Virus record (IMG/VR): IMGVR_UViG_3300005688_000042
From: a virus
Taxonomy: Duplodnaviria > Heunggongvirae > Uroviricota > Caudoviricetes
Strand: one strand, 5' to 3'
DNA length: 64,000 nucleotides
The notes beneath the pieces are model-generated. The model saw nothing but the letters and a program-made list of their open reading frames with translations, was not told where the DNA came from and searched no databases. Position numbers and translations under genes: made by a program. Positions 5,096 to 63,670 of the stretch are shown one piece after another; the stretch's first letter is position 1; every line of letters starts with the position of its first letter.

Positions 5096-5278
5096 ATGAA
5101 AAATGGAAATGAAAGGTGGCCGACCATGTCAAAGAAGAAAGTTAGATGGATCGTTTCGTGGTGGGACTTCGAAAAAGATTATGAGGTTCATAAATTTTAT
5201 GACACACACGAAGAAGCTATAACAAAGCAGTTTAAGCTTAAACGAATGGGAATTACAGCGCAGGTAGAATTAAAATGA
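5096..5278 (+). CDS. hypothetical protein
   Basis: ORF track; GGTGG RBS-like sequence upstream. Confidence 0.4.
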   Translation: MKNGNERWPTMSKKKVRWIVSWWDFEKDYEVHKFYDTHEEAITKQFKLKRMGITAQVELK

Positions 5279-5514
5279 ACAATAAAATCAAACAGTTAGC
5301 GGAAGAAGCGGGATTTTGTTTTTGGTCAGATGAACCTTGGAAGCCTGCTGGCGCAGAGATTGATTGGTCGTCTATCTATGATGACCAGCTTGCAGAACTT
5401 TTGAGGTTGTTAAAACTTGAACTACTTGATATAGTAGCTGAAGGCGAAAGATATTATGAGTTCAAGGACGGAGCAACTTATATCAAAAATCACATCAATG
5501 AATTATTAGGATAA
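5275..5514 (+). CDS. hypothetical protein
   Basis: ORF track; ATGA overlap with the previous ORF. Confidence 0.45.
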   Translation: MNNKIKQLAEEAGFCFWSDEPWKPAGAEIDWSSIYDDQLAELLRLLKLELLDIVAEGERYYEFKDGATYIKNHINELLG

Positions 5515-5518
5515 CGTC

Positions 5519-5998
5519 ATGAATAAAAATATTAGTGCAGGATTTCAATTAGTTGTAGATTCTTGGGAAAACGATGGCGATTCGCCAAAGACAATTACAC
5601 TATATGGACTTTCTAAAGAAAAAGTTCTATTCTTTTTAGAGTTCCTTAAAGGTTTCGATTCTGATGATGAGCGCTTTTGTAATCAAGGTGTCGAAGACGA
5701 ATTGCTTATTCAATATGTTGATAAAGTTCTTTTACGACATCCGTCAGTAGCCAGAGAAATCGTAGAAGAGTACGATCTTGGTCACACGGTTGAAGATATT
5801 CCTGACGAGCAGAACTTCTCTCACTATGTTAGTGATTCTTATTATCAAATCGTTGTAGATTTGCTGGGTTCTCCAGAAAATTCTTATTATCAAGATGAGC
5901 ACAACTTTTGTAGAGTCTTTGAAAGTGCCGAAGTATATTTTGTACCTAATGAAATTATAAATGTCACAAGGAATTTTGGTTATGAAAAAGCCAATTAA
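5519..5998 (+). CDS. hypothetical acidic protein
   Basis: ORF track. Confidence 0.45.
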   Translation: MNKNISAGFQLVVDSWENDGDSPKTITLYGLSKEKVLFFLEFLKGFDSDDERFCNQGVEDELLIQYVDKVLLRHPSVAREIVEEYDLGHTVEDIPDEQNFSHYVSDSYYQIVVDLLGSPENSYYQDEHNFCRVFESAEVYFVPNEIINVTRNFGYEKAN

Positions 5999-52156: not shown

Positions 52157-52735
52157 ATGAAACTTCGACAATGGGCAAATAAACAAGGGATTTCCTACTT
52201 GACAGCGCTTCGCTGGTTCAAGGCAGGTAAAATTCCAAATTCAACTCAATTCCCATCTGGCACCATCATAATACAAGATGAGCTGCCTGTCAACACGGAT
52301 GAAAATAAATCAGTACATATCTATGCCAGAGTTTCTTCACATGAGAAGAAAGATGATCTAACCAGACAAGCCCAAAGATGTGTTGAATTTGCTAATGCCA
52401 ATGGATACGAAATAATCTCAGTTACAAAAGAAATTGCTTCTGGCATGAATGATAAGCGACCAAAATTAATTAAATTGATTGAACAGAAACCAAAACATAT
52501 CATTGTTGAGCACAAGGACAGATTGACCAGATTTGGATTCAATTACTTTGATTTATTACTTCCTATGATTGGTTGTAAATTAACTGTTATGAATAGAGAT
52601 CAAGAAGAGCATGCGGATTTAATGAAAGATTTAGTTTCTGTTATTACATCATTTTGTTGTAAATTATATGGTCTGCGCAGAGCGCAGAACAAGAAACAAA
52701 AGATCCAACAAATATTGGAAGACGAAAATGTTTAA
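52157..52735 (+). CDS. tnpA: IS607-type TnpA serine recombinase with MerR-like HTH
   Basis: NKQGISYLTALRWF HTH; IYARVSS...RQ. Confidence 0.7.
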   Translation: MKLRQWANKQGISYLTALRWFKAGKIPNSTQFPSGTIIIQDELPVNTDENKSVHIYARVSSHEKKDDLTRQAQRCVEFANANGYEIISVTKEIASGMNDKRPKLIKLIEQKPKHIIVEHKDRLTRFGFNYFDLLLPMIGCKLTVMNRDQEEHADLMKDLVSVITSFCCKLYGLRRAQNKKQKIQQILEDENV

Positions 52736-53783
52736 AAGAGCTATTAAGTTGAAATCATATGCAACAGAAGCAAAGCAAAATAAAGTCCTTGCTTTGATTA
52801 GTCGCTATAGATGTCAAGTTAATATGTTTATAGATTACATCTGGAACAACAAAGAAACAGCAAAATTAGATGCTAAAACATTGAAATCTATAGATAAAGT
52901 TCAAGATTTATCCGAAAGATATAAATCCAATGCATTGAAACAGGCACTTCAAATTTGTAAAAGCGAAAAGAACAAATCCAAACCAGATTTCAATGGTTAT
53001 CCGGTGCTAGATGCAAAGTTCGTGTCTATTGACACGAACAAATCTTCAAAAGAATTTGATTTGTGGATAAAATTATCAACATTGAAATCTGGAAGACGAA
53101 TAGAAATACCAACAAAGAAGCATGCACATTTAAACAAATGGCTTAAAACTGGTACATTGATACAAGGCTGTGAGCTTCGCCCAGACGGTTTCATCGTCTG
53201 GGTAGAGGCGAACCCACCTGAAAAGAAAAATAGCTTGAAGGTCGGTGTAGACATCGGAATGAACAAGCTATTGACCACTAGCTATGGTGAAAAATTAGGA
53301 ACTGATTTTAATCGAATCAATGATAAAATTCTAAGGAAGAAAAAGAACAGTAAGAATTACAAAAGAGCCATAGCAGAAAAGAAAAACTATATAAATCAAT
53401 CAGTTAACTTGCTTCCGTGGACAGAAATGGAAGTGCTTTGCTATGAAAACATTAAAAATTTGAAGAAAGGAAGTACAAAAAGAAATAAACAAACAAGACA
53501 AAAACAGCAACATTGGAGCTATAGACAAGTTATAGAAGCTATGAAAATGAAGGCCCAAGCTAACCGTGTTAGCTTGGTCTATGTTAATCCGGCTTACACT
53601 TCTCAGAAATGTTCCGCTTGTGGTAATATTGCTGCATCCAGTCGATATCTAGAAAATTATTGTTGCATCAGTTGCGGTCATACACAAGACGCAGATGTAA
53701 ATGCAGCAAAAAATATTCTACACAAAGGACTAGACTGGATAACGAGCTTAGAGTCCGTTAAGTCAAAAAGTGCTATCATATGA
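52728..53783 (+). CDS. tnpB: TnpB (OrfB), intact RuvC motifs and zinc finger (start trimmed to MFKRAIKL, ATGTTTAA overlap)
   Basis: VDIGMNK, YENIKNL, YTSQKCSACG...CISCGH, DADVNAAKNI. Confidence 0.7.
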   Translation: MFKRAIKLKSYATEAKQNKVLALISRYRCQVNMFIDYIWNNKETAKLDAKTLKSIDKVQDLSERYKSNALKQALQICKSEKNKSKPDFNGYPVLDAKFVSIDTNKSSKEFDLWIKLSTLKSGRRIEIPTKKHAHLNKWLKTGTLIQGCELRPDGFIVWVEANPPEKKNSLKVGVDIGMNKLLTTSYGEKLGTDFNRINDKILRKKKNSKNYKRAIAEKKNYINQSVNLLPWTEMEVLCYENIKNLKKGSTKRNKQTRQKQQHWSYRQVIEAMKMKAQANRVSLVYVNPAYTSQKCSACGNIAASSRYLENYCCISCGHTQDADVNAAKNILHKGLDWITSLESVKSKSAII

Positions 53784-56314: not shown

Positions 56315-57403
56315 ATGGCAACGATTCCCTTCATCTCCACCGAAAATGCTGTTACGGTCGCCGTCGATGGCGCAGCATACACGATTCCAAAGACTGCACC
56401 TAACTATAAGGATGTTAAGTCTGCACTGGTTCGTGGCGAGACCGATGTATCCATTTTTAAGCGTCTTCTGAACATCCGCGAGTATGTTGCACAGTTGACC
56501 GAGGGTCGCGCTGAACTGGTCGATGGTAAGTTGTATTTTGATGGTGGCCCGATGCGTGGTGCTCTTGCTGATCGTGTCGCTACCATGTTCGCAGAAGGTT
56601 TCGGGGTGGCTCCACTGTTGCGCTTCCTGAACCGTGTTGCTGCCAATCCGCGTCTGGACAAGGATAGTAAACTGTATTCGCCTAAGTTTGAAGATGAACT
56701 GTATTTGTTCCTTGAAGGTGGCGATTGCCCGATTACTGAGAATGGCACGTTCCTCGCTTATAAGATGGTGAATTCCGATTTTACGGATATTTACACTGGT
56801 AAGATGGACAATAGTCCGGGCACTCTGGTATCTTTGAAGAGTCCGGAGAATGTTGATCCTGAACGTATGAATACCTGCTCGTATGGTCTGCATTTTGCAT
56901 CGCTGAATTATGTTCTGAATGGTGGATATGGTTCAGGTTCGCATGGTCATCGTCTGGTAGTGGTTGAAATTGATCCCGCTGATGTTATCTCAATTCCTTA
57001 CGATTACGGTAACTCCAAGGGTCGTGCATGGAAGTATACTATCCTCCGTGAGATTGAATGGAATGATCGTATCAAGCCGAATTTCATTTCCACCAACGAT
57101 TGTAACGGTTGGGATGATGCGGAAGATTTTGATGAAGATGATTATGTAGATGATTATGAAGACGATGCAGACGAAGAACAAGGTAATCTGGAGTGGATGA
57201 AGGATGCCGAAGGTCGAGAAGATACTGAGAATGAAGTTGTAAACGTGGTCGCTGTTGGAGTGTTGGAGGACAACGAAGTCCGTGGCATCCGAGCATCGCT
57301 GGCGAGGGGTGAGACTCTGGCAGCAATCGCAAGGTTCTATCAGGTTAGCCCGCGAACTGTAGCACGCATCCGCGATGGTGAAACCTACTCTCACGTAAAG
57401 TGA
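56315..57403 (+). CDS. rIIB: rIIB-like protein with extra acidic tract and C-terminal HTH
   Basis: ENGTFLAYKMV, MDNSPGTLVSLKSP, CSYGLHFASLNYV, VVVEIDPADVISIPYDYGNSKGRAWKYTIL parallel T4 rIIB; directly follows rIIA. Confidence 0.7.
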   Translation: MATIPFISTENAVTVAVDGAAYTIPKTAPNYKDVKSALVRGETDVSIFKRLLNIREYVAQLTEGRAELVDGKLYFDGGPMRGALADRVATMFAEGFGVAPLLRFLNRVAANPRLDKDSKLYSPKFEDELYLFLEGGDCPITENGTFLAYKMVNSDFTDIYTGKMDNSPGTLVSLKSPENVDPERMNTCSYGLHFASLNYVLNGGYGSGSHGHRLVVVEIDPADVISIPYDYGNSKGRAWKYTILREIEWNDRIKPNFISTNDCNGWDDAEDFDEDDYVDDYEDDADEEQGNLEWMKDAEGREDTENEVVNVVAVGVLEDNEVRGIRASLARGETLAAIARFYQVSPRTVARIRDGETYSHVK

Positions 57404-57536
57404 GAGTCTGGTAGATAAGTTATAAAGAATGGCCGGGGAAACCCGGCCATTCATTTTATGTTCATATACATGGTGTTAAAATTGGTACGGCGGTTGGGGA
57501 ACATCATAAATAGACTTACAACAGGAGATCTATTTT

Positions 57537-58055
57537 ATGAAAAATTTTATTAAAGTCGTATGTGCATCGGTCTTAGCCCTTGCATCAATTTCAGCAGTAG
57601 CCAAGCAGAATTATGTTACACTTCCACCAGTACCAGTTACTACAGCAGTGGTTCCAGCAGATGCCTCCGGTTATTGGGCGTCGTATCAGGTTCCCGGCTT
57701 AAAAGTGGTCCTAGCGTCAGGTAGCTACTATGCAGGTAGCTATGGTCCAGCTACTTGCGGAAAGGTTTTAAGAGCTACAGTCTCAATCCCTCGCACTGGT
57801 CCAGTTAACGGTTGGATACACGCAGAAGGTTACAAGCACGATTCTACCAATACGGGAATCCCGTATGGTCAAAGTTTCAACCTCTTGACAAAGTCTGCAC
57901 TAGCTGGTACCTTTAGTGTCGTAGCATACGATGCAACCAACAACTACTTAACAATTCAGTTAAGTACGCCAGCGGGTGGCCCTTCTGGAACTTTTGTGTT
58001 GAATCGTGATCCAACTACACCGTACACTGCGTTAGTGGTTCCAAATTGTCAATAA
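57537..58055 (+). CDS. secreted protein (signal peptide)
   Basis: MKNFIKVVCASVLALASISAVA; AGGAGA RBS. Confidence 0.5.
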   Translation: MKNFIKVVCASVLALASISAVAKQNYVTLPPVPVTTAVVPADASGYWASYQVPGLKVVLASGSYYAGSYGPATCGKVLRATVSIPRTGPVNGWIHAEGYKHDSTNTGIPYGQSFNLLTKSALAGTFSVVAYDATNNYLTIQLSTPAGGPSGTFVLNRDPTTPYTALVVPNCQ

Positions 58056-58083
58056 CAATAATTATAAACAGTTGTAACATTCA

Positions 58084-58114
58084 AAGGGGTGCTTGACGCA
58101 CCCCTTCTTTTTTG
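58084..58114 (+). terminator. rho-independent terminator
   Basis: AAGGGGTGC-ttgac-GCACCCCTT followed by CTTTTTT. Confidence 0.7.
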
Positions 58115-58153
58115 ATATAGTCTATCCACACTAACAACAGGACATAAAAACAA

Positions 58154-58345
58154 ATGAGCAACCTGAACAACCTTCAGGCACGTTTGATTACACTCTCCAA
58201 GCAACTTGCTGAAGCTCGTGGGATGGATGAAGTGGACGATGAACTCGTAGAAGATTTAGAAGATATGATCGCGGACATCGAAGATGAGATTGAAGGAATA
58301 CTCGCAGACGAGTATGATTCGAAGCACGGGGCGCAGTGGAATTAA
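58154..58345 (+). CDS. small acidic protein
   Basis: ORF track. Confidence 0.45.
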   Translation: MSNLNNLQARLITLSKQLAEARGMDEVDDELVEDLEDMIADIEDEIEGILADEYDSKHGAQWN

Positions 58346-58352
58346 ATTATAA

Positions 58353-58425
58353 GCCTCGGTAGCTTAGTGGCCTAAAGCGACTTTCTCTAAAATTGTGATC
58401 GTGAGTTCAAATCTCACCCGAGGCG
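58353..58425 (+). tRNA. tRNA with anticodon CUA (amber-suppressor-like); anticodon stem has two U-U mismatches
   Basis: Acceptor GCCTCGG/CCGAGGC disc G, D GCTT/AAGC, loop cuCUAaa, T-arm GTGAG-TTCAAAT-CTCAC; alternative registers pair worse. Confidence 0.4.
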
Positions 58426-58433
58426 ATATAATC

Positions 58434-59057
58434 ATGTTCCGTTTCCTTGTAAAAGTTCCTAACAAAGTCGGGGTTGCATTTTCCGGTGGAGTCGATTCAT
58501 TGGCTATCGCACATTTCCTGAAAAAGGGAAATAAGGAAGTCACCCTATACCATTTTAACCATCTATGTCAATACTCGGCAGACATTGAGTATAAATGTTG
58601 TCGTCTGGCTGATAGACTCAGAATGCCTATTGTTCTGGCTAGTTATCATGGACAACGTGAGAAGGGACAATCCCTTGAAGACGCATGGCGTAGAGCTAGG
58701 TATCGTTTTCTTAGATCATGTGATCAACAGATTATCACTGGTCATCATATCGATGATGCCGTAGAAACGTGGGTGTGGTCTTCATTACATGGTGAAGGTA
58801 AGTTGATCCCTGTAACTTCTGGTAACATCATCCGTCCGTTTTTGACAACAGAAAAATCAGTTTTCGAAAATCATTGTAAAATCAATAAGTTAGATGTTGT
58901 TGAAGATGAAATGAACAAAGATTTACATCTAATGCGCAATTATATGAGAGCAAATATGATGCAACACATCTATCATATTAATCCGGGATTACGGAAAGTA
59001 ATCAAGAAAAAATACATAAATATGATTAATATTCCAGAATTAGAAGATGACAGTTAA
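58434..59057 (+). CDS. PP-loop ATPase, tRNA(Ile)-lysidine synthetase (TilS)-like; 3' end replaced by the downstream insertion
   Basis: SGGVDS PP-loop; start trimmed to MFRF to clear the tRNA; C-terminal 45 aa duplicated at 60720-60833. Confidence 0.55.
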   Translation: MFRFLVKVPNKVGVAFSGGVDSLAIAHFLKKGNKEVTLYHFNHLCQYSADIEYKCCRLADRLRMPIVLASYHGQREKGQSLEDAWRRARYRFLRSCDQQIITGHHIDDAVETWVWSSLHGEGKLIPVTSGNIIRPFLTTEKSVFENHCKINKLDVVEDEMNKDLHLMRNYMRANMMQHIYHINPGLRKVIKKKYINMINIPELEDDS

Positions 59058-60720
59058 AGAAGAACTACGAGAGATATTCAAACAAAAAAACTGGCCGGGA
59101 TGGTTAGCTAGGAATAGACCACTATTGTTGGCTGAATTAAAACGATTAACTAATTTTGTTCCTGAAGATTTTCCTTTGGTTGTAAGAGCATGGCACATAA
59201 CGAACGAAGTATTCACAATACCAAAATGTGCTCTGTGCGATCAAGTTGTTTTTCTTCGAAAAAAGCAAAACACATACAGTGACTATTGTAGAGAATGTGC
59301 AAGAAAGGTAGAACAACAGAATAGAGAAAAAGCGGTATTGAAAAAATATGGAACCCGCCAGATTTTATCTGTTGGTAGTATTCGCGAAAGTATCAAAAAA
59401 ACTAATTTGAAAAAATATGGCGTAGAATTTGTATCTCAATCTAAAATAATACGAGATAAAATAGAGAATACGGTTAAAGAAAAATATGGAGTATCCAACC
59501 CTTCGCAAGCCGATAGTGTTAAGCAAAAGAAAATTATTAAGTCAATGAAAGTCTACGGTGTTGCTAATCCTCTGATGGTAGATGAAATAAAGGATAAGAT
59601 CAAAGAAACAAATAAAGAAAAATATGGCACGCAAAATGCTATGCAATCTGATAAGATTAAAAATAAAAATAAAGCGACTTGTTTACAAAAATATGGTGTT
59701 GAATTTCATGTGCAAAAAAATCTATCTAACGAAGCATTAGAGGTTTTAAATTCAAAAGATATATTGATTGATATGCATCATAACAAAAAGATGACACAGG
59801 GGGAAATAGCCAAAATCATCGATGTTACTCAAACTACTGTATCTAATTATTGTTTTAAGCATAACATAGAAGTTAAACATTACTTCAGATCTGCTGGAGA
59901 AAAAGAGCTTTTCGATTTTGTGCTATCATCATTTCCAAACGCGATTCCCAACTATAGAAAAATAGCAGGCGTAGAGTTGGATTGCTTCATACCAGATATA
60001 TCATTAGCGATAGAATATAATGGAGTATATTGGCATAGTGAAAAAGTTGGTAAGACACAAAACTTTCATGCTGACAAATATAATTTATGTAAAGATAATG
60101 GAATACGACTAATAACAATCTTCGAAAATGAGTGGACTGAAAAAAATGATTTAGTAAAATTAAAATTATTAAACATATTCGGAAAATCACAAGAACGTAA
60201 GATATTCGCAAGAAAAACTACAATCTGTGAGGTATCTACAAAAGATAAGAATAATTTTTTTGATTTGTACCATATACAAGAATCTGGCCCATCGTCCATA
60301 AATTTTGGCTTAATGAGTGACAATGATTTAGTTGCATGTATGGGTTTCATTAAGTACAATGATTATTATGTTTTGAATAGATACGCATCCTCATGTAATG
60401 TTGTTGGCGGATTTACCAAATTGTTAACACATTTTGAAAACAAATTTGATAAACCTAAGATAGTGACATTTGCAGACTTAAGATGGTCGGGAGGAGATTT
60501 ATATCACAATTCAAAATTTAAGCTTGACAGTGTGCTTGAACCTGATTATAGTTGGGTTAAAGATGGAAAGGTTTGGCATAAATTTAGTTGGAGACATACT
60601 TCCGGTCTTAAAAAATTACAAAATTATGACCCAAACAAATCAGAGATAGAAAACATGCATGCTCATGGATTCTATCGCTTATGGGACTGTGGTAAGCTGC
60701 GGTTCGTAAAAAACACTTGA
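59047..60720 (+). CDS. homing-endonuclease-like protein: Zn ribbon + six KYG-type homing-endonuclease-associated repeats + Vsr/DUF559-like PD-(D/E)xK nuclease + C-terminal domain
   Basis: Repeats KYGTRQ, KYGVEFVSQ, KYGVSNPSQ, VYGVANPLM, KYGTQNAMQ, KYGVEFHVQ; nuclease motif VELDCFIPDISLAIEYNGVYWH. Confidence 0.55.
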   Translation: MTVKEELREIFKQKNWPGWLARNRPLLLAELKRLTNFVPEDFPLVVRAWHITNEVFTIPKCALCDQVVFLRKKQNTYSDYCRECARKVEQQNREKAVLKKYGTRQILSVGSIRESIKKTNLKKYGVEFVSQSKIIRDKIENTVKEKYGVSNPSQADSVKQKKIIKSMKVYGVANPLMVDEIKDKIKETNKEKYGTQNAMQSDKIKNKNKATCLQKYGVEFHVQKNLSNEALEVLNSKDILIDMHHNKKMTQGEIAKIIDVTQTTVSNYCFKHNIEVKHYFRSAGEKELFDFVLSSFPNAIPNYRKIAGVELDCFIPDISLAIEYNGVYWHSEKVGKTQNFHADKYNLCKDNGIRLITIFENEWTEKNDLVKLKLLNIFGKSQERKIFARKTTICEVSTKDKNNFFDLYHIQESGPSSINFGLMSDNDLVACMGFIKYNDYYVLNRYASSCNVVGGFTKLLTHFENKFDKPKIVTFADLRWSGGDLYHNSKFKLDSVLEPDYSWVKDGKVWHKFSWRHTSGLKKLQNYDPNKSEIENMHAHGFYRLWDCGKLRFVKNT

Positions 60721-60833
60721 TACGTAACTACATGCGTGCTAACATGATGGAACATATCTATCATATCAACCCCGGTATTAGAACTGTCATCAAGAAAAAA
60801 TACGAAAAGTTGTTGACAACGTCTGCTGGTTGA
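60720..60833 (+). pseudogene. displaced original 3' end of the tilS-like gene (no start codon)
   Basis: Encodes ...IRNYMRANMMEHIYHINPGIRTVIKKKYEKLLTTSAG*, about 90% aa and 70% nt identical to 58927-59010. Confidence 0.5.
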
Positions 60834-60841
60834 TTTATAGT
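60813..60841 (+). promoter_or_regulatory. sigma70-type promoter TTGACA-N17-TATAGT for rnlA
   Basis: Read directly. Confidence 0.5.
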
Positions 60842-60866
60842 ATATACACTCAACCAAGGAACGCCA

Positions 60867-61979
60867 ATGAACACCTTCCAGCAGACTCTTTACAATGATC
60901 TCATGAAGCTCTGTGAGAACGAAGCTTTCTACTATGTGGATCAGAATGTAGACGGTAAGGTTTTCCGTGTGTTCACTTATCGTTTGGCATCCTACACTGA
61001 ATTCTGCCTCCCGAATGCACTGGAATGCCGTGGTCATACCTTCCTGATGGATGGTGACACTGCGGTGGATTTGGTTTGTCTTCCGCCTGCAAAGTTTTTC
61101 AATCTATACGAAAACAATTTCACAATGGATTTAGATCTAAAGAATGCTGTTCTTTATATGGATAAACTCGACGGCTCATTGATTTCAACCGTAAAAGATT
61201 CAACGATGCATCATGGATTTCGTTTGAAGTCAAAAACTTCATTCATTTCCCAACAAGCCGTTGACGCATATCAATTTCTCTTAAGCAACCATCATTTGTT
61301 AATGGTTGTTTCTGAATATATTGATGATGGATATACTGTAAATTTTGAATGGATCGGAAGTTCTAACCAAATTGTGGTTCGTTATCCGGAACATTCATTA
61401 AAAGTATTAAGCGCACGCAACTTGTTGAACGGTCATACAGAATATCCAGACATTTCTCTTCAACATCAGTTGAGTTCAAAATATGTGGTATCATGTGATT
61501 ATACGATGCGCTCATATGAAGAAATTCTTGATATGACTGGCGTTGAAGGTTTCGTTGTTTTGTTTAATGATGGTCGATTGGCAAAAATAAAAAACAACTG
61601 GTATTCAAAAATTCATCGTTGTAAAGATAGTGTAAACAATCCAAAGGCGCTGTTTCAGGCTTGTCTGTATGAAACTTCTGATGACTTGCGTTCACTGTTC
61701 CATGATGATGAACTGGCGATGAAGCAGATCACTGCAATGGAAACTTTGGTACGTACTAACTTCAATCACATTTCTTCACAGTTGCAGAAGTTTTACGATG
61801 AAAATAAGTTGCTTTCGAGGAAAGATTACGCGATACTTGCGCAACAAACTTTCAAGGATGGCACATTCCCTCTCGCAATGAATCTTTATCTTGGTAAGGA
61901 TATGGGATTGAAGGATTGGATGATGAAGAACTATCGTGAATTCGGTATTACTGATGTTCAACTAGAATCGGAGAATTGA
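60867..61979 (+). CDS. rnlA: RNA ligase 1 (T4 gp63/RnlA homologue)
   Basis: ALECRGHTF, AKFFNLYENNFTMDLDL, nucleotidyl-transfer motif MDKLDGSL, NPKALFQACL, SDDLRSLFHDDE parallel T4 Rnl1 along its length. Confidence 0.8.
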   Translation: MNTFQQTLYNDLMKLCENEAFYYVDQNVDGKVFRVFTYRLASYTEFCLPNALECRGHTFLMDGDTAVDLVCLPPAKFFNLYENNFTMDLDLKNAVLYMDKLDGSLISTVKDSTMHHGFRLKSKTSFISQQAVDAYQFLLSNHHLLMVVSEYIDDGYTVNFEWIGSSNQIVVRYPEHSLKVLSARNLLNGHTEYPDISLQHQLSSKYVVSCDYTMRSYEEILDMTGVEGFVVLFNDGRLAKIKNNWYSKIHRCKDSVNNPKALFQACLYETSDDLRSLFHDDELAMKQITAMETLVRTNFNHISSQLQKFYDENKLLSRKDYAILAQQTFKDGTFPLAMNLYLGKDMGLKDWMMKNYREFGITDVQLESEN

Positions 61980-61980
61980 G

Positions 61981-62178
61981 ATGGCACGTTATTTGTTGAT
62001 TGTCAATGAAAAATTCTACCCTGCCCGTGGTACTGGTGATTGGGTTGGATCTTATGATACATGGGAGAAAGCTGAAGAAATTGGACAAGGTCTTCTAGAG
62101 GACGAGTACAAGTCGTATACTGTAGTAGACTTGCTTGATCTTGTTAACCAACCTGAAGGTGAAAAGGTAGAAGAATGA
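61981..62178 (+). CDS. hypothetical acidic protein
   Basis: ORF track. Confidence 0.45.
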   Translation: MARYLLIVNEKFYPARGTGDWVGSYDTWEKAEEIGQGLLEDEYKSYTVVDLLDLVNQPEGEKVEE

Positions 62179-62179
62179 T

Positions 62180-62431
62180 ATGATCATCGAACTGTATCCC
62201 AATGATGAAAAGTTTGAATTCGAACATGGTGATGAACATGCACTATGGGTAAATGCTTCTGAAGAACAGATAGAAGTGCTATCATCTATGGATTGGATGA
62301 TTTGTTCAGAGGTTGATGGTGATCCAGAGTATATTCATGTTGACTTTGATATTAGCGAACAAGGTATCGGTGCAGCGTTTAATGTTGCCAATCTGATGCT
62401 AAACAAAATTCAAGGTGAGGTTCTGACGTGA
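62180..62431 (+). CDS. hypothetical acidic protein
   Basis: ORF track. Confidence 0.45.
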   Translation: MIIELYPNDEKFEFEHGDEHALWVNASEEQIEVLSSMDWMICSEVDGDPEYIHVDFDISEQGIGAAFNVANLMLNKIQGEVLT

Positions 62432-63594: not shown

Positions 63595-63670
63595 GGCCCG
63601 GAAGCTTATTCGGTCAAGCAGCAAACTCATAATTTGAAGAAAATGGGTTCGAATCCCATACGGGCCACCA
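63595..63670 (+). tRNA. tRNA with anticodon CAU (Met, or Ile2 if lysidinylated), CCA encoded
   Basis: Acceptor GGCCCGG/ACGGGCC (one mismatch), D GCTT/AAGC, loop cuCAUaa, T-arm ATGGG-TTCGAAT-CCCAT. Confidence 0.55.

Follow-up and report, generated by a model that had tools for sequence, protein, structure and literature searches.

A putative homing endonuclease gene with its own replacement 3' end inside a tilS-like gene of an uncultured jumbo phage

Introduction

Why do the last codons of a phage gene occur twice, on either side of a nuclease gene, and which of the two copies arrived with the nuclease? This question is raised by a locus of an uncultured jumbo phage (genome of ~307 kb), studied here in a window of 64,000 nucleotides. 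A first-pass annotation of the DNA had proposed that a free-standing homing endonuclease gene invaded a tRNA-modification gene of a T4-like phage together with flanking donor sequence, displacing the native gene end. The phage is not T4-like in the strict sense, since its nearest cultured relatives as judged by RnlA, namely Xoo-sp13, CM1 and RAS14, share only 45-47% identity with it. A megablast search with positions 57400-62200 returned zero matches against 50,697 phage records, which consequently hold no close sequenced relative. A search of IMG/VR for related loci with the nuclease protein as query gave no confirmed relative. The comparisons below were made with related metagenomic contigs.

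Results and Discussion

Organization of the locus

The order on the + strand is PP-loop gene, nuclease gene, orphaned 3' end and rnlA, a T4 Rnl1-like RNA ligase gene (60867..61979, +; Pfam RNA_lig_T4_1 and T4_Rnl1_C). The PP-loop gene (58434..59057, +) encodes a protein of 207 aa and shares its start ATG with its homologues. An SGGVDS PP-loop motif occupies residues 17-22 (58482-58499), and the protein matches Pfam ATP_bind_3 (3e-30) as well as TIGR02432, lysidine_TilS_N, at 107.2 bits against a cutoff of 93.6. Both the SGGxDS motif and the N-terminal catalytic domain of TilS are thus present. Against the full-length TilS model NF007942 (cutoff 606 bits) the protein reaches 54 bits, with the alignment confined to the N-terminal 200 profile positions; by this comparison the C-terminal tRNA-binding domains of full-length TilS are absent from the 207-aa protein. 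On these profiles, TilS-like is the most appropriate name for the gene. Genes for a suppressor tRNA (anticodon CTA) and for another tRNA, with anticodon CAT, are also present in the window.

An in-frame insertion of 1788 bp (58926..60713, +), delimited by the offset of the two copies of the gene end and by a right junction shared with other lineages, separates native codon 164 from codon 165, within the part of the gene that encodes the conserved catalytic domain. It begins with the first copy of the gene end, hereafter copy 1 (58926..59057, +), which supplies codons 165-207 and a TAA stop. The nuclease gene (59047..60720, +; 557 aa) follows, its ATG overlapping the PP-loop gene by 11 nt. The second copy (60714..60833, +), corresponding to codons 165-203 and a stop, is an orphan: a 39-codon reading frame which keeps the PP-loop frame modulo 3 at an offset of 1788 bp and is joined to no upstream coding sequence. 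The TGA stop of the nuclease gene (60718-60720) lies out of frame within the first codons of this orphan, from which the nuclease gene takes 7 bases beyond the insertion. As the inserted DNA is in frame inside the PP-loop gene, reading continues through the imported end and the gene is complete. We infer that the gene works on with this imported end and that the native end is idle downstream.

A consensus scan picked out a candidate sigma-70-like promoter (TTGACA-17-TATAGT, a match at 11/12 positions; 60813..60841, +) whose -35 box falls within the tail of the orphan and whose end is 26 nt upstream of the rnlA ATG.

The duplicated gene end

The homologous stretches, 58926-59015 and 60714-60803, comprise 30 codons each and represent the same codons of the gene. 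They share 26 of 30 amino acids (86.7%), 73.3% of nucleotides and only 40% of third positions, figures close to the ~90% protein and ~70% nucleotide identity estimated in the first-pass annotation, which had placed the copies a few bases off. The differences are, as it had also held, mainly synonymous: the Nei-Gojobori method gives 18 synonymous as against 6 non-synonymous differences; synonymous sites are saturated, and dN is ~0.09. When the orphan peptide was compared with the whole window by tblastn, copy 1 was retrieved at E=5.8e-16 and the runner-up at E=0.098, a gap indicating that the match between the copies is not due to chance. Past codon 194 the tails diverge, reading INMINIPELEDDS before the stop in copy 1 and EKLLTTSAG before the stop in the orphan.

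Empty, occupied and deleted sites in related contigs

The first-pass annotation had suggested looking for an uninterrupted allele in related phages, and such alleles, of 196-203 aa, were found. Seven loci are empty sites (L001, L002, L022, L023, L025, L027 and L029). In L022 (P0010) the uninterrupted gene carries an orphan-type tail, ...EKLLTTSND, and an ORF whose DNA aligns with the orphan-rnlA region of the window at 81% starts 38 nt after it. From that DNA alignment we take rnlA to be the right-hand neighbour at both the window locus and the empty site. Occupied sites were found in three lineages, represented by the window, L016 and L020, which have the 1788-bp in-frame insertion at one shared junction. 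The right junction, AAAAA/CACTTGAT, is the same in all three, and it would therefore have formed once. The 5' parts of the PP-loop genes of L016 and L020 are just 45-75% identical to that of the window. The exact window PP-loop protein was always accompanied by the nuclease gene (22/22 contigs read), and the search for a near-identical empty-site allele of the window lineage found none, the best candidate being P0002 at 85% protein identity.

Identities among the gene ends, computed on short segments of 90 nt, reveal which copy travels with the nuclease. Copy 1 of the window shares 90% identity with its counterpart in L016 and 84% with that in L020, whereas native ends reach 66-78%, and each copy 1 segment of the three lineages has its nearest sequence among the other two (0.84-0.90). 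For the orphan of the window, by contrast, identity is 91% with the native end of the uninterrupted L022 and 73% with copy 1, and the L020 orphan agrees with the native end of L023 at 99%. That of L016 is nearest to the L020 orphan (0.86), native ends among the sampled contigs reaching 0.83-0.84. Two of the three orphans are thus nearest to the end of an uninterrupted allele and copy 1 tracks the nuclease gene in three lineages, which supports the earlier proposal of an invading nuclease with donor flank and a displaced native end; the opposite assignment, with the orphan as companion of the nuclease, was rejected on the same grounds.

These relationships also bear on whether the gene end was simply duplicated within this genome, independently of the nuclease, and then drifted. 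Two direct copies on one strand, 1.8 kb apart, are compatible with such an event. Saturated synonymous sites combined with 87% protein conservation argue instead that both copies were selected as working ends in separate lineages, and each copy is nearest to a sequence from another phage. Local tandem duplication was dropped for these reasons and is considered highly improbable.

L017-L019 correspond to L016 minus ~1.58 kb, deleted at an ATAT microhomology. They keep copy 1 but have lost the nuclease gene from codon 56 onward and most of the orphan, of which only the last ~24 nt remain in L017. The coding part of the orphan is consequently dispensable. The L017 deletion spares the TTGACA of the promoter match, a hexamer that the orphan tail of L016 and the native tail of L025 encode as well. 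The presence of copy 1 without the orphan gives indirect support to the inserted end being the sole end expressed in the phage gene. A single upstream-type 3' end with no nuclease nearby had been named beforehand as evidence against an invasion. That arrangement does occur in L017-L019, but they retain the first 55 nuclease codons and are thus deletion derivatives, which supports the model. A further arrangement was observed in L026, a distant relative: its PP-loop gene is followed, likewise with an 11-nt overlap, by a 53%-identical nuclease gene that has its own TAG stop and no orphan.

The nuclease

The intact ORF that separates the two copies has a match to PHROG 3339, 'homing endonuclease' (8e-118). 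The protein contains, in order, a CxxC...CxxC element, DUF7487 'KYG' repeats (aa 115-224), an HTH, a Vsr/EDxHD nuclease domain (~aa 285-385) and a Mom/GNAT-like domain (~aa 385-557) that is strongly conserved in this nuclease clade. The HTH matches, together with sigma-region-4-like ones, are weak (~aa 177-284), and the four N-terminal Cys positions are nearly invariant among homologues. A predicted modular DNA-binding region therefore precedes the nuclease domain, as in Hef/EDxHD enzymes.

Sequence profile and predicted fold place the 557-aa protein in the Hef/EDxHD family, with a Vsr-like fold homologous to the catalytic domain of I-Bth0305I. Across 44 homologous sequences there is no variation at E26, D28 and H46, the residues at catalytic positions, or at E39 (domain numbering), and D28 and H46 align with the positions mutated as D196A and H213A in 3r3p. 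The counterpart of 3r3p D222 falls near H57/K60, where an Asp is not clearly present in this clade. A single-sequence phmmer search against PDB retrieved 3r3p only marginally (E=0.029), the family profile being needed for the match. The earlier description of the enzyme as KYG-repeat and Vsr-like was correct, whereas its description as HNH-associated was not.

Genes for EDxHD enzymes, that for I-Bth0305I among them, are often found in introns (PMC3239194), and the orphan shares the PP-loop frame modulo 3, which might suggest that the nuclease gene resides in a group I intron or an intein, the orphan being the true second exon and copy 1 a decaying remnant. Rfam over 58000-61200 at E<=1 yields a tRNA alone and no intron, and neither a ribozyme structure there nor an in-frame protein fusion was found around the nuclease ORF. 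Moreover, the nuclease is in another frame and separated by a stop codon from the PP-loop reading, which excludes an intein. The PP-loop ORF is complete with copy 1 and the stop that copy 1 carries, L017-L019 have copy 1 after loss of the orphan, and the nuclease of L026 occurs without an orphan. Both forms of this explanation were dropped on the Rfam result, the frames and the stop codons; we give them next to no credence.

Conversion tract and age of the insertion

The PP-loop gene of the window appears to contain a donor-type, co-converted tract immediately left of the insertion (58735..58925, +), whose approximate bounds were derived from a drop in GC, a rise in identity and the mismatches between L020 and L023. 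GC falls from ~0.43 to ~0.30 near 58775-58850, and from codon 101 on the window is 0.80-0.92 identical to the other loci that bear the nuclease, as compared with 0.45-0.72 before. Between L020 and the uninterrupted L023 there are 4 mismatches over a stretch made up of 300 upstream nt and the initial 300 nt of the gene; gene nt 335-491 then hold 32 mismatches (the first at nt 335), and to the right of the junction none occurs within 88 nt. This near-identical allele pair places the probable left exchange point ~50-70 codons upstream of the insertion. In the window the left boundary is approximate since the PP-loop gene is mosaic in many lineages; the uninterrupted L027, for instance, matches the window at 92-93% over codons 111-150 and then switches to a native-type end. 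Related loci thus display both presence/absence polymorphism at one site and donor-type conversion of the flank.

Part of this pattern could be explained by a single ancient insertion inherited vertically, the orphan being kept by selection for a function of its own (rnlA promoter, homology arm or small peptide) and the recent gains reflecting recombination, not homing. The junction common to the three lineages is in agreement with such a history, as are the near-consensus -35 box spared in L017 and the nuclease proteins, whose divergence (76-85% identity among the window, L016 and L020 lineages) is similar to that of some flanking genes; at such distances, no sampled genome is the recent donor of another. 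Yet the orphan of L020 matches the native end of L023 at 99% next to a copy 1 region of 73-85%, a contrast that points to a recent exchange ending exactly at the junction. Cassette identity between lineages also exceeds that of the gene 5' part (for window and L016, 0.85-0.96 over much of the cassette and 0.45-0.72 in the 5' part), and L017 does without nearly the whole orphan. We therefore regard an ancient insertion with vertical descent as unlikely.

Origin and spread of the cassette

We favour, with a probability of roughly 0.8, the interpretation of 58926-60713 as a mobile cassette consisting of a recoded replacement end of 43 codons and a Hef/EDxHD homing endonuclease gene. Under this interpretation the nuclease gene would at first have been located just downstream of a PP-loop gene, in an L026-like arrangement. 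One illegitimate repair event would then have fused the terminal nuclease codons to ...CAC TTG AT... in the PP-loop gene of a related phage, and the same event would have made the orphan and provided the TGA stop of the nuclease. During co-infection, the enzyme would cut uninterrupted alleles at or near codon 164/165, and the break would be repaired off the cassette-bearing genome, the left end pairing with the PP-loop gene (~150-220 nt of co-conversion) and the right end with the donor orphan. Each recipient would thereby acquire copy 1 and the nuclease gene, its own 3' end being left as a new orphan. Cleavage at the codon 164/165 junction and recurrent homing are thus our predictions. Cassette-bearing genomes would be immune, as the site is recoded in copy 1 (CAT CTA for CAC TTG) and half-replaced at the nuclease/orphan junction; in such genomes the cassette may later decay by deletion. 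Cleavage site and basis of immunity are both read solely from the fixed junction, and the enzyme activity is putative.

A more speculative extension is that the element is self-sufficient for gene-end replacement, a kind of element for which we came across no viral description, puts the displaced fragment to use and encodes a bifunctional nuclease. The displaced fragment may provide the right homology arm at each homing event, the nuclease stop codon and the promoter of the next gene. If the element is self-sufficient, its 90-bp repeats would allow scar-free loss of the cassette; L027 is suggestive of an excision product of recombination between the two repeats, ordinary mosaicism being also possible. 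The Mom/GNAT-like domain might act catalytically on DNA, for example by marking or protecting target sites, which would make the protein more than a plain nuclease. That all of these hold jointly appears doubtful.

Public metagenomes thus contain several stages at one locus, from a free-standing nuclease gene (L026) through seven empty sites and three occupied lineages to deleted forms (L017-L019), which makes the locus a convenient natural system in which to study homing, the length of conversion tracts and the loss of such elements in uncultured jumbo phages. Such cassettes yield chimeric genes and orphan fragments and can mislead annotation and single-gene phylogeny.

Comparison with known systems

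The first-pass annotation compared the locus with T4 39/60-mobA and Aeh1 nrdA-mobE. Like these and seg43(25) in gene 43, another gene-internal free-standing endonuclease insertion of T4-type phages (PMC2988022), the nuclease gene described here is free-standing and occupies a conserved part of a phage gene that is important. The parallel is inexact, since mobA and mobE split their genes in two polypeptides with no duplication, and the polypeptides of such T4-type split genes reassemble (PMC2988022). In the present locus the gene is whole through its imported end and the native end is redundant: two non-redundant, required gene parts were not found, the orphan repeating codons 165-194 and being mostly deleted in L017. 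The cassette also resembles T4 intronless homing, in which the seg and mob genes co-convert flanking markers (reviewed in PMC2988022), in that the nuclease is present or absent in relatives, the flanks are donor-type and immunity is probably conferred by target differences. Classical intronless homing, however, takes place between genes and needs homology on both sides, whereas this cassette lies within coding sequence and its right homology arm would be a displaced gene fragment.

Among related enzymes, I-Bth0305I (PDB 3R3P), the EDxHD prototype, resides in a recA intron and cuts immediately beside its own insertion site (PMC3239194), and Hef of phage U5 sits between nrdA and nrdB (Sandegren et al. 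2005, as described in PMC2988022). For neither do the accounts cited here report a replacement gene end such as that of the phage cassette. The phage nuclease further differs from both in its conserved Mom/GNAT-like C-terminal domain and in a final motif D that is not clearly conserved in its clade.

The closest known systems, and a better analogue than mobA or mobE, are the fungal mitochondrial mORFs with replacement C-termini. These 'gene hybrids' have been described in Allomyces macrogynus atp6, Rhizopus atp9, Mortierella cox2 and Glomus atp6, atp9, cox2 and nad3 (PMC3630166), and C-terminal duplications of atp6 and cob with endonuclease ORFs occur in Endoconidiophora (PMC6279837). In both cases a gene core is followed by a foreign C-terminus in frame, an endonuclease ORF and the displaced native C-terminus, an arrangement deduced for the phage from sequence alone. 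Inserted and native ends are far apart in DNA and close in protein in both, those of Glomus atp6 sharing 63.5% of nucleotides and 91% of amino acids and those of the phage locus 73% and 87%, and the native end matches insertion-free relatives, here at 0.99 (L020-L023) and 0.91 (window-L022). The two differ in that the host is a jumbo phage instead of an organelle, and that the enzyme is of the Hef/EDxHD (Vsr-fold) type instead of LAGLIDADG or GIY-YIG. Whereas the Glomus atp6 nuclease is fused in phase, the phage nuclease is a separate overlapping ORF, and its stop codon is, unlike in the mORFs, supplied by the displaced fragment. The literature searched contained no phage precedent for a replacement 3' end, though one may still exist. 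The locus thus extends the fungal mitochondrial layout to viruses and suggests that a phage gene can survive the entry of a selfish nuclease gene into its conserved core when the invader brings a recoded spare end.

Organization of the PP-loop locus

The 207-aa PP-loop gene (window 58434-59057, plus strand) is preceded at 8 nt by a tRNA with anticodon CTA (58353-58425, plus strand; Rfam tRNA, 56 bits) and overlaps by 11 nt the 557-aa ORF of a nuclease (59047-60720, plus strand). A short orphan frame (60714-60833, plus strand) follows, and rnlA, coding for a T4 Rnl1-like RNA ligase (60867-61979, plus strand), starts 34 nt after it. Codon-by-codon comparison revealed that 30 codons are present twice, at 58926-59015 (copy 1) and 60714-60803 (orphan), spaced by 1788 bp and in the same frame. 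The two share 26 of 30 amino acids and 73.3% of nucleotides, third positions being only 40% identical; 18 differences are synonymous and 6 non-synonymous, and synonymous sites are saturated. Searched against the six-frame translated window, the orphan peptide matched the upstream copy with E=5.8e-16, the second-best match having E=0.098. The first-pass annotation, which had described this repeated gene end, is thus borne out to within a few bases. It overlooked that the homology starts at a His codon (CAT/CAC), so the nuclease stop codon sits out of frame within the displaced fragment, the ORF end ...AAA AAC ACT TGA overlapping the orphan's CAC TTG ATA.

The PP-loop protein bears an SGGVDS motif and passes the TilS N-terminal domain model TIGR02432 (107 bits, curated cutoff 93.6), whereas NF007942 scores 54 bits against a cutoff of 606 and revealed no C-terminal tRNA-binding part of TilS. 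TilS-like is therefore the correct name. The insertion point, between native codons 164 and 165, falls within both models, which reach residues 173-176. A tRNA with anticodon CAT (63595-63670) has an acceptor stem beginning GGCCC (C4-G69 and C5-G68 pairs) and the anticodon loop CUCAUAA, and thereby resembles the E. coli substrate of TilS, tRNA-Ile2; instead of a Met tRNA, it may be a partner for the TilS-like enzyme of the phage.

Uninterrupted, occupied and decayed alleles

Megablast of 57400-62200 against 50,697 records of the phage collection found no close relative of the locus; relatives were found in metagenome collections (loci labelled L below). L001 and L002 carry uninterrupted PP-loop genes of 201 aa, and about two dozen more proteins, each 195-203 aa long, share 64-85% identity with that of the window. 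One of them (P0010 of L022, 203 aa) ends in ...EHIYHINPGIRTVIRKKYEKLLTTSND, the orphan type of C-terminus; the next ORF of L022 starts 38 nt past the gene, and that DNA aligns at 81% to the window's orphan-rnlA region. Two other lineages, L016 and L020, are occupied: a 206-207-aa gene with a copy 1-type tail, a 557-aa nuclease gene and an orphan. Pairwise identities over 90 nt place the copy 1 segments of window, L016 and L020 closest to one another (0.84-0.90). The orphans have other affinities: that of L020 comes closest to the L023 native end (0.99), that of the window to the L022 native end (0.91), and that of L016 to the L020 orphan (0.86), with the L023 and L025 native ends at 0.83-0.84. 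Copy 1 and the nuclease gene are a single inherited unit, and the orphan represents the displaced end of the recipient's gene. These cross-lineage affinities, together with saturated synonymous divergence, exclude a local duplication.

L017-L019 are 100% (left) and 99.95% (right) identical to L016 and have lost about 1.58 kb at an ATAT microhomology, nuclease codon 55 being joined to the orphan's final five codons; the deletion leaves copy 1 in place, as well as the TTGACA box that precedes rnlA. The more distant L026 has a 202-aa PP-loop gene that overlaps, again by 11 nt, a following nuclease gene; the latter shares 53% identity with that of the window and ends at its own TAG, and the PP-loop gene end occurs there only once. 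That the nuclease gene lies inside an intron is unlikely: Rfam detects only the tRNA in 58000-61200 (E<=1), copy 1 brings the reading frame to a stop, and neither L017 nor L026 has an orphan. An intein is excluded by frame and stop codon.

A selected function is possible for the orphan's tail only, which contains the -35 box of a near-consensus sigma-70-type promoter match (TTGACA-17-TATAGT, 60813-60841; 11/12 positions, consensus match only) ending 26 nt upstream of rnlA. Two other tails, that of the L016 orphan and the native one of L025, likewise encode TTGACA. A similar consensus match, TTGACG-17-TATAGT, follows a terminator-like hairpin at 58084-58121.

Boundaries and proposed spread of the element

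Compared with uninterrupted L023, L020 shows 1 difference in the 300 nt upstream, 3 in the gene's first 300 nt and 32 at gene nt 335-491; right of the junction there are none in 88 nt, then about 3.5% over the next 330 nt. The imported tract thus starts 50-70 codons before the insertion and stops exactly at the junction. In the window, GC drops from ~0.43 to ~0.30 near 58775-58850 and recovers at ~60720; identity of its PP-loop gene to L016/L020 rises from 0.45-0.75 (codons 1-100) to 0.80-0.92 (codons 101-180), and over the cassette identity to L016 is 0.85-0.96, the repeat region excepted. The PP-loop gene is also mosaic in uninterrupted lineages. Segment affinities, the L020/L023 boundaries and the uninterrupted alleles together support the earlier proposal that copy 1 and the nuclease were imported and displaced the native end.

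The right junction, ...GTA AAA AAC ACT TGA T..., is identical in window, L016 and L020, which indicates a single founding illegitimate join. Two orphans closely match the ends of uninterrupted alleles, and the L020/L023 boundaries are sharp; both facts argue for later spread by homologous repair. The break's right end would pair with the donor's orphan, the simplest break position would be the junction itself, and cassette-bearing genomes would be immune through CAT CTA recoding and a half-replaced site; we infer cleavage position, immunity and homing frequency alike. Timing is the main uncertainty. Between lineages the nuclease proteins share only 76-85% identity; therefore no sampled genome was the direct donor to another, and part of the history must be vertical descent.

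Neighbouring features

The CTA tRNA, labelled 'Pyl' by ARAGORN, is an amber suppressor; on the plus strand, only 2 of the 42 ORFs that reach 120 aa end in TAG. The PP-loop gene sits in a hotspot of further endonuclease genes. In the closest uninterrupted allele, a GIY-YIG ORF separates it from rnlA (L029 2785-3639 and L030 1312-2166, minus strand); L001 has an HNH ORF where the window has the CTA tRNA (5236-5877, minus strand); and ~1.8 kb past rnlA, an HNH_3 ORF runs from ~63736 to the end of the window. At 52157-53783, Pfam annotations of the identical contig L011 and window ORFs identify a serine-recombinase (Resolvase) gene adjoining a TnpB-like (Cas12f1-like_TNB) gene, an IS607-type pair. 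The PP-loop gene-rnlA interval of L002 (6690-7600, ~1 kb) contains overlapping ORFs for Ala/Arg/Gly-rich proteins, unlike the flanking phage genes; it could have a foreign origin or result from chimeric assembly.

Comparison with known systems

The observation of the first-pass annotation is confirmed and its interpretation supported; its enzyme family, phage type and analogies need correcting. From its sequence profile and predicted fold, the nuclease belongs to the Hef/EDxHD family. Judged by RnlA, the closest cultured phages are the jumbo phages Xoo-sp13, CM1 and RAS14 (45-47% identity), and the phage is not strictly T4-like. The insertions it had invoked, mobA (39/60) and Aeh1 mobE (nrdA), like seg43(25), split genes into two polypeptides (PMC2988022); the word stem 'duplicat' is absent from the text of that T4 review. 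No phage example of such a replacement gene end was found in the literature searched, whose coverage is incomplete. The nuclease's Mom/GNAT-like domain was unexpected and is the part most deserving further attention. The element itself is a clean multi-stage natural example and involves no new principle. Its layout is that of fungal mitochondrial mobile ORFs, as in Allomyces atp6 and Glomus atp6, atp9, cox2 and nad3; for Glomus atp6, the C-terminus that was inserted and the native one share 63.5% of nucleotides and 91% of amino acids (PMC3630166). Endoconidiophora atp6 and cob add further such cases (PMC6279837).
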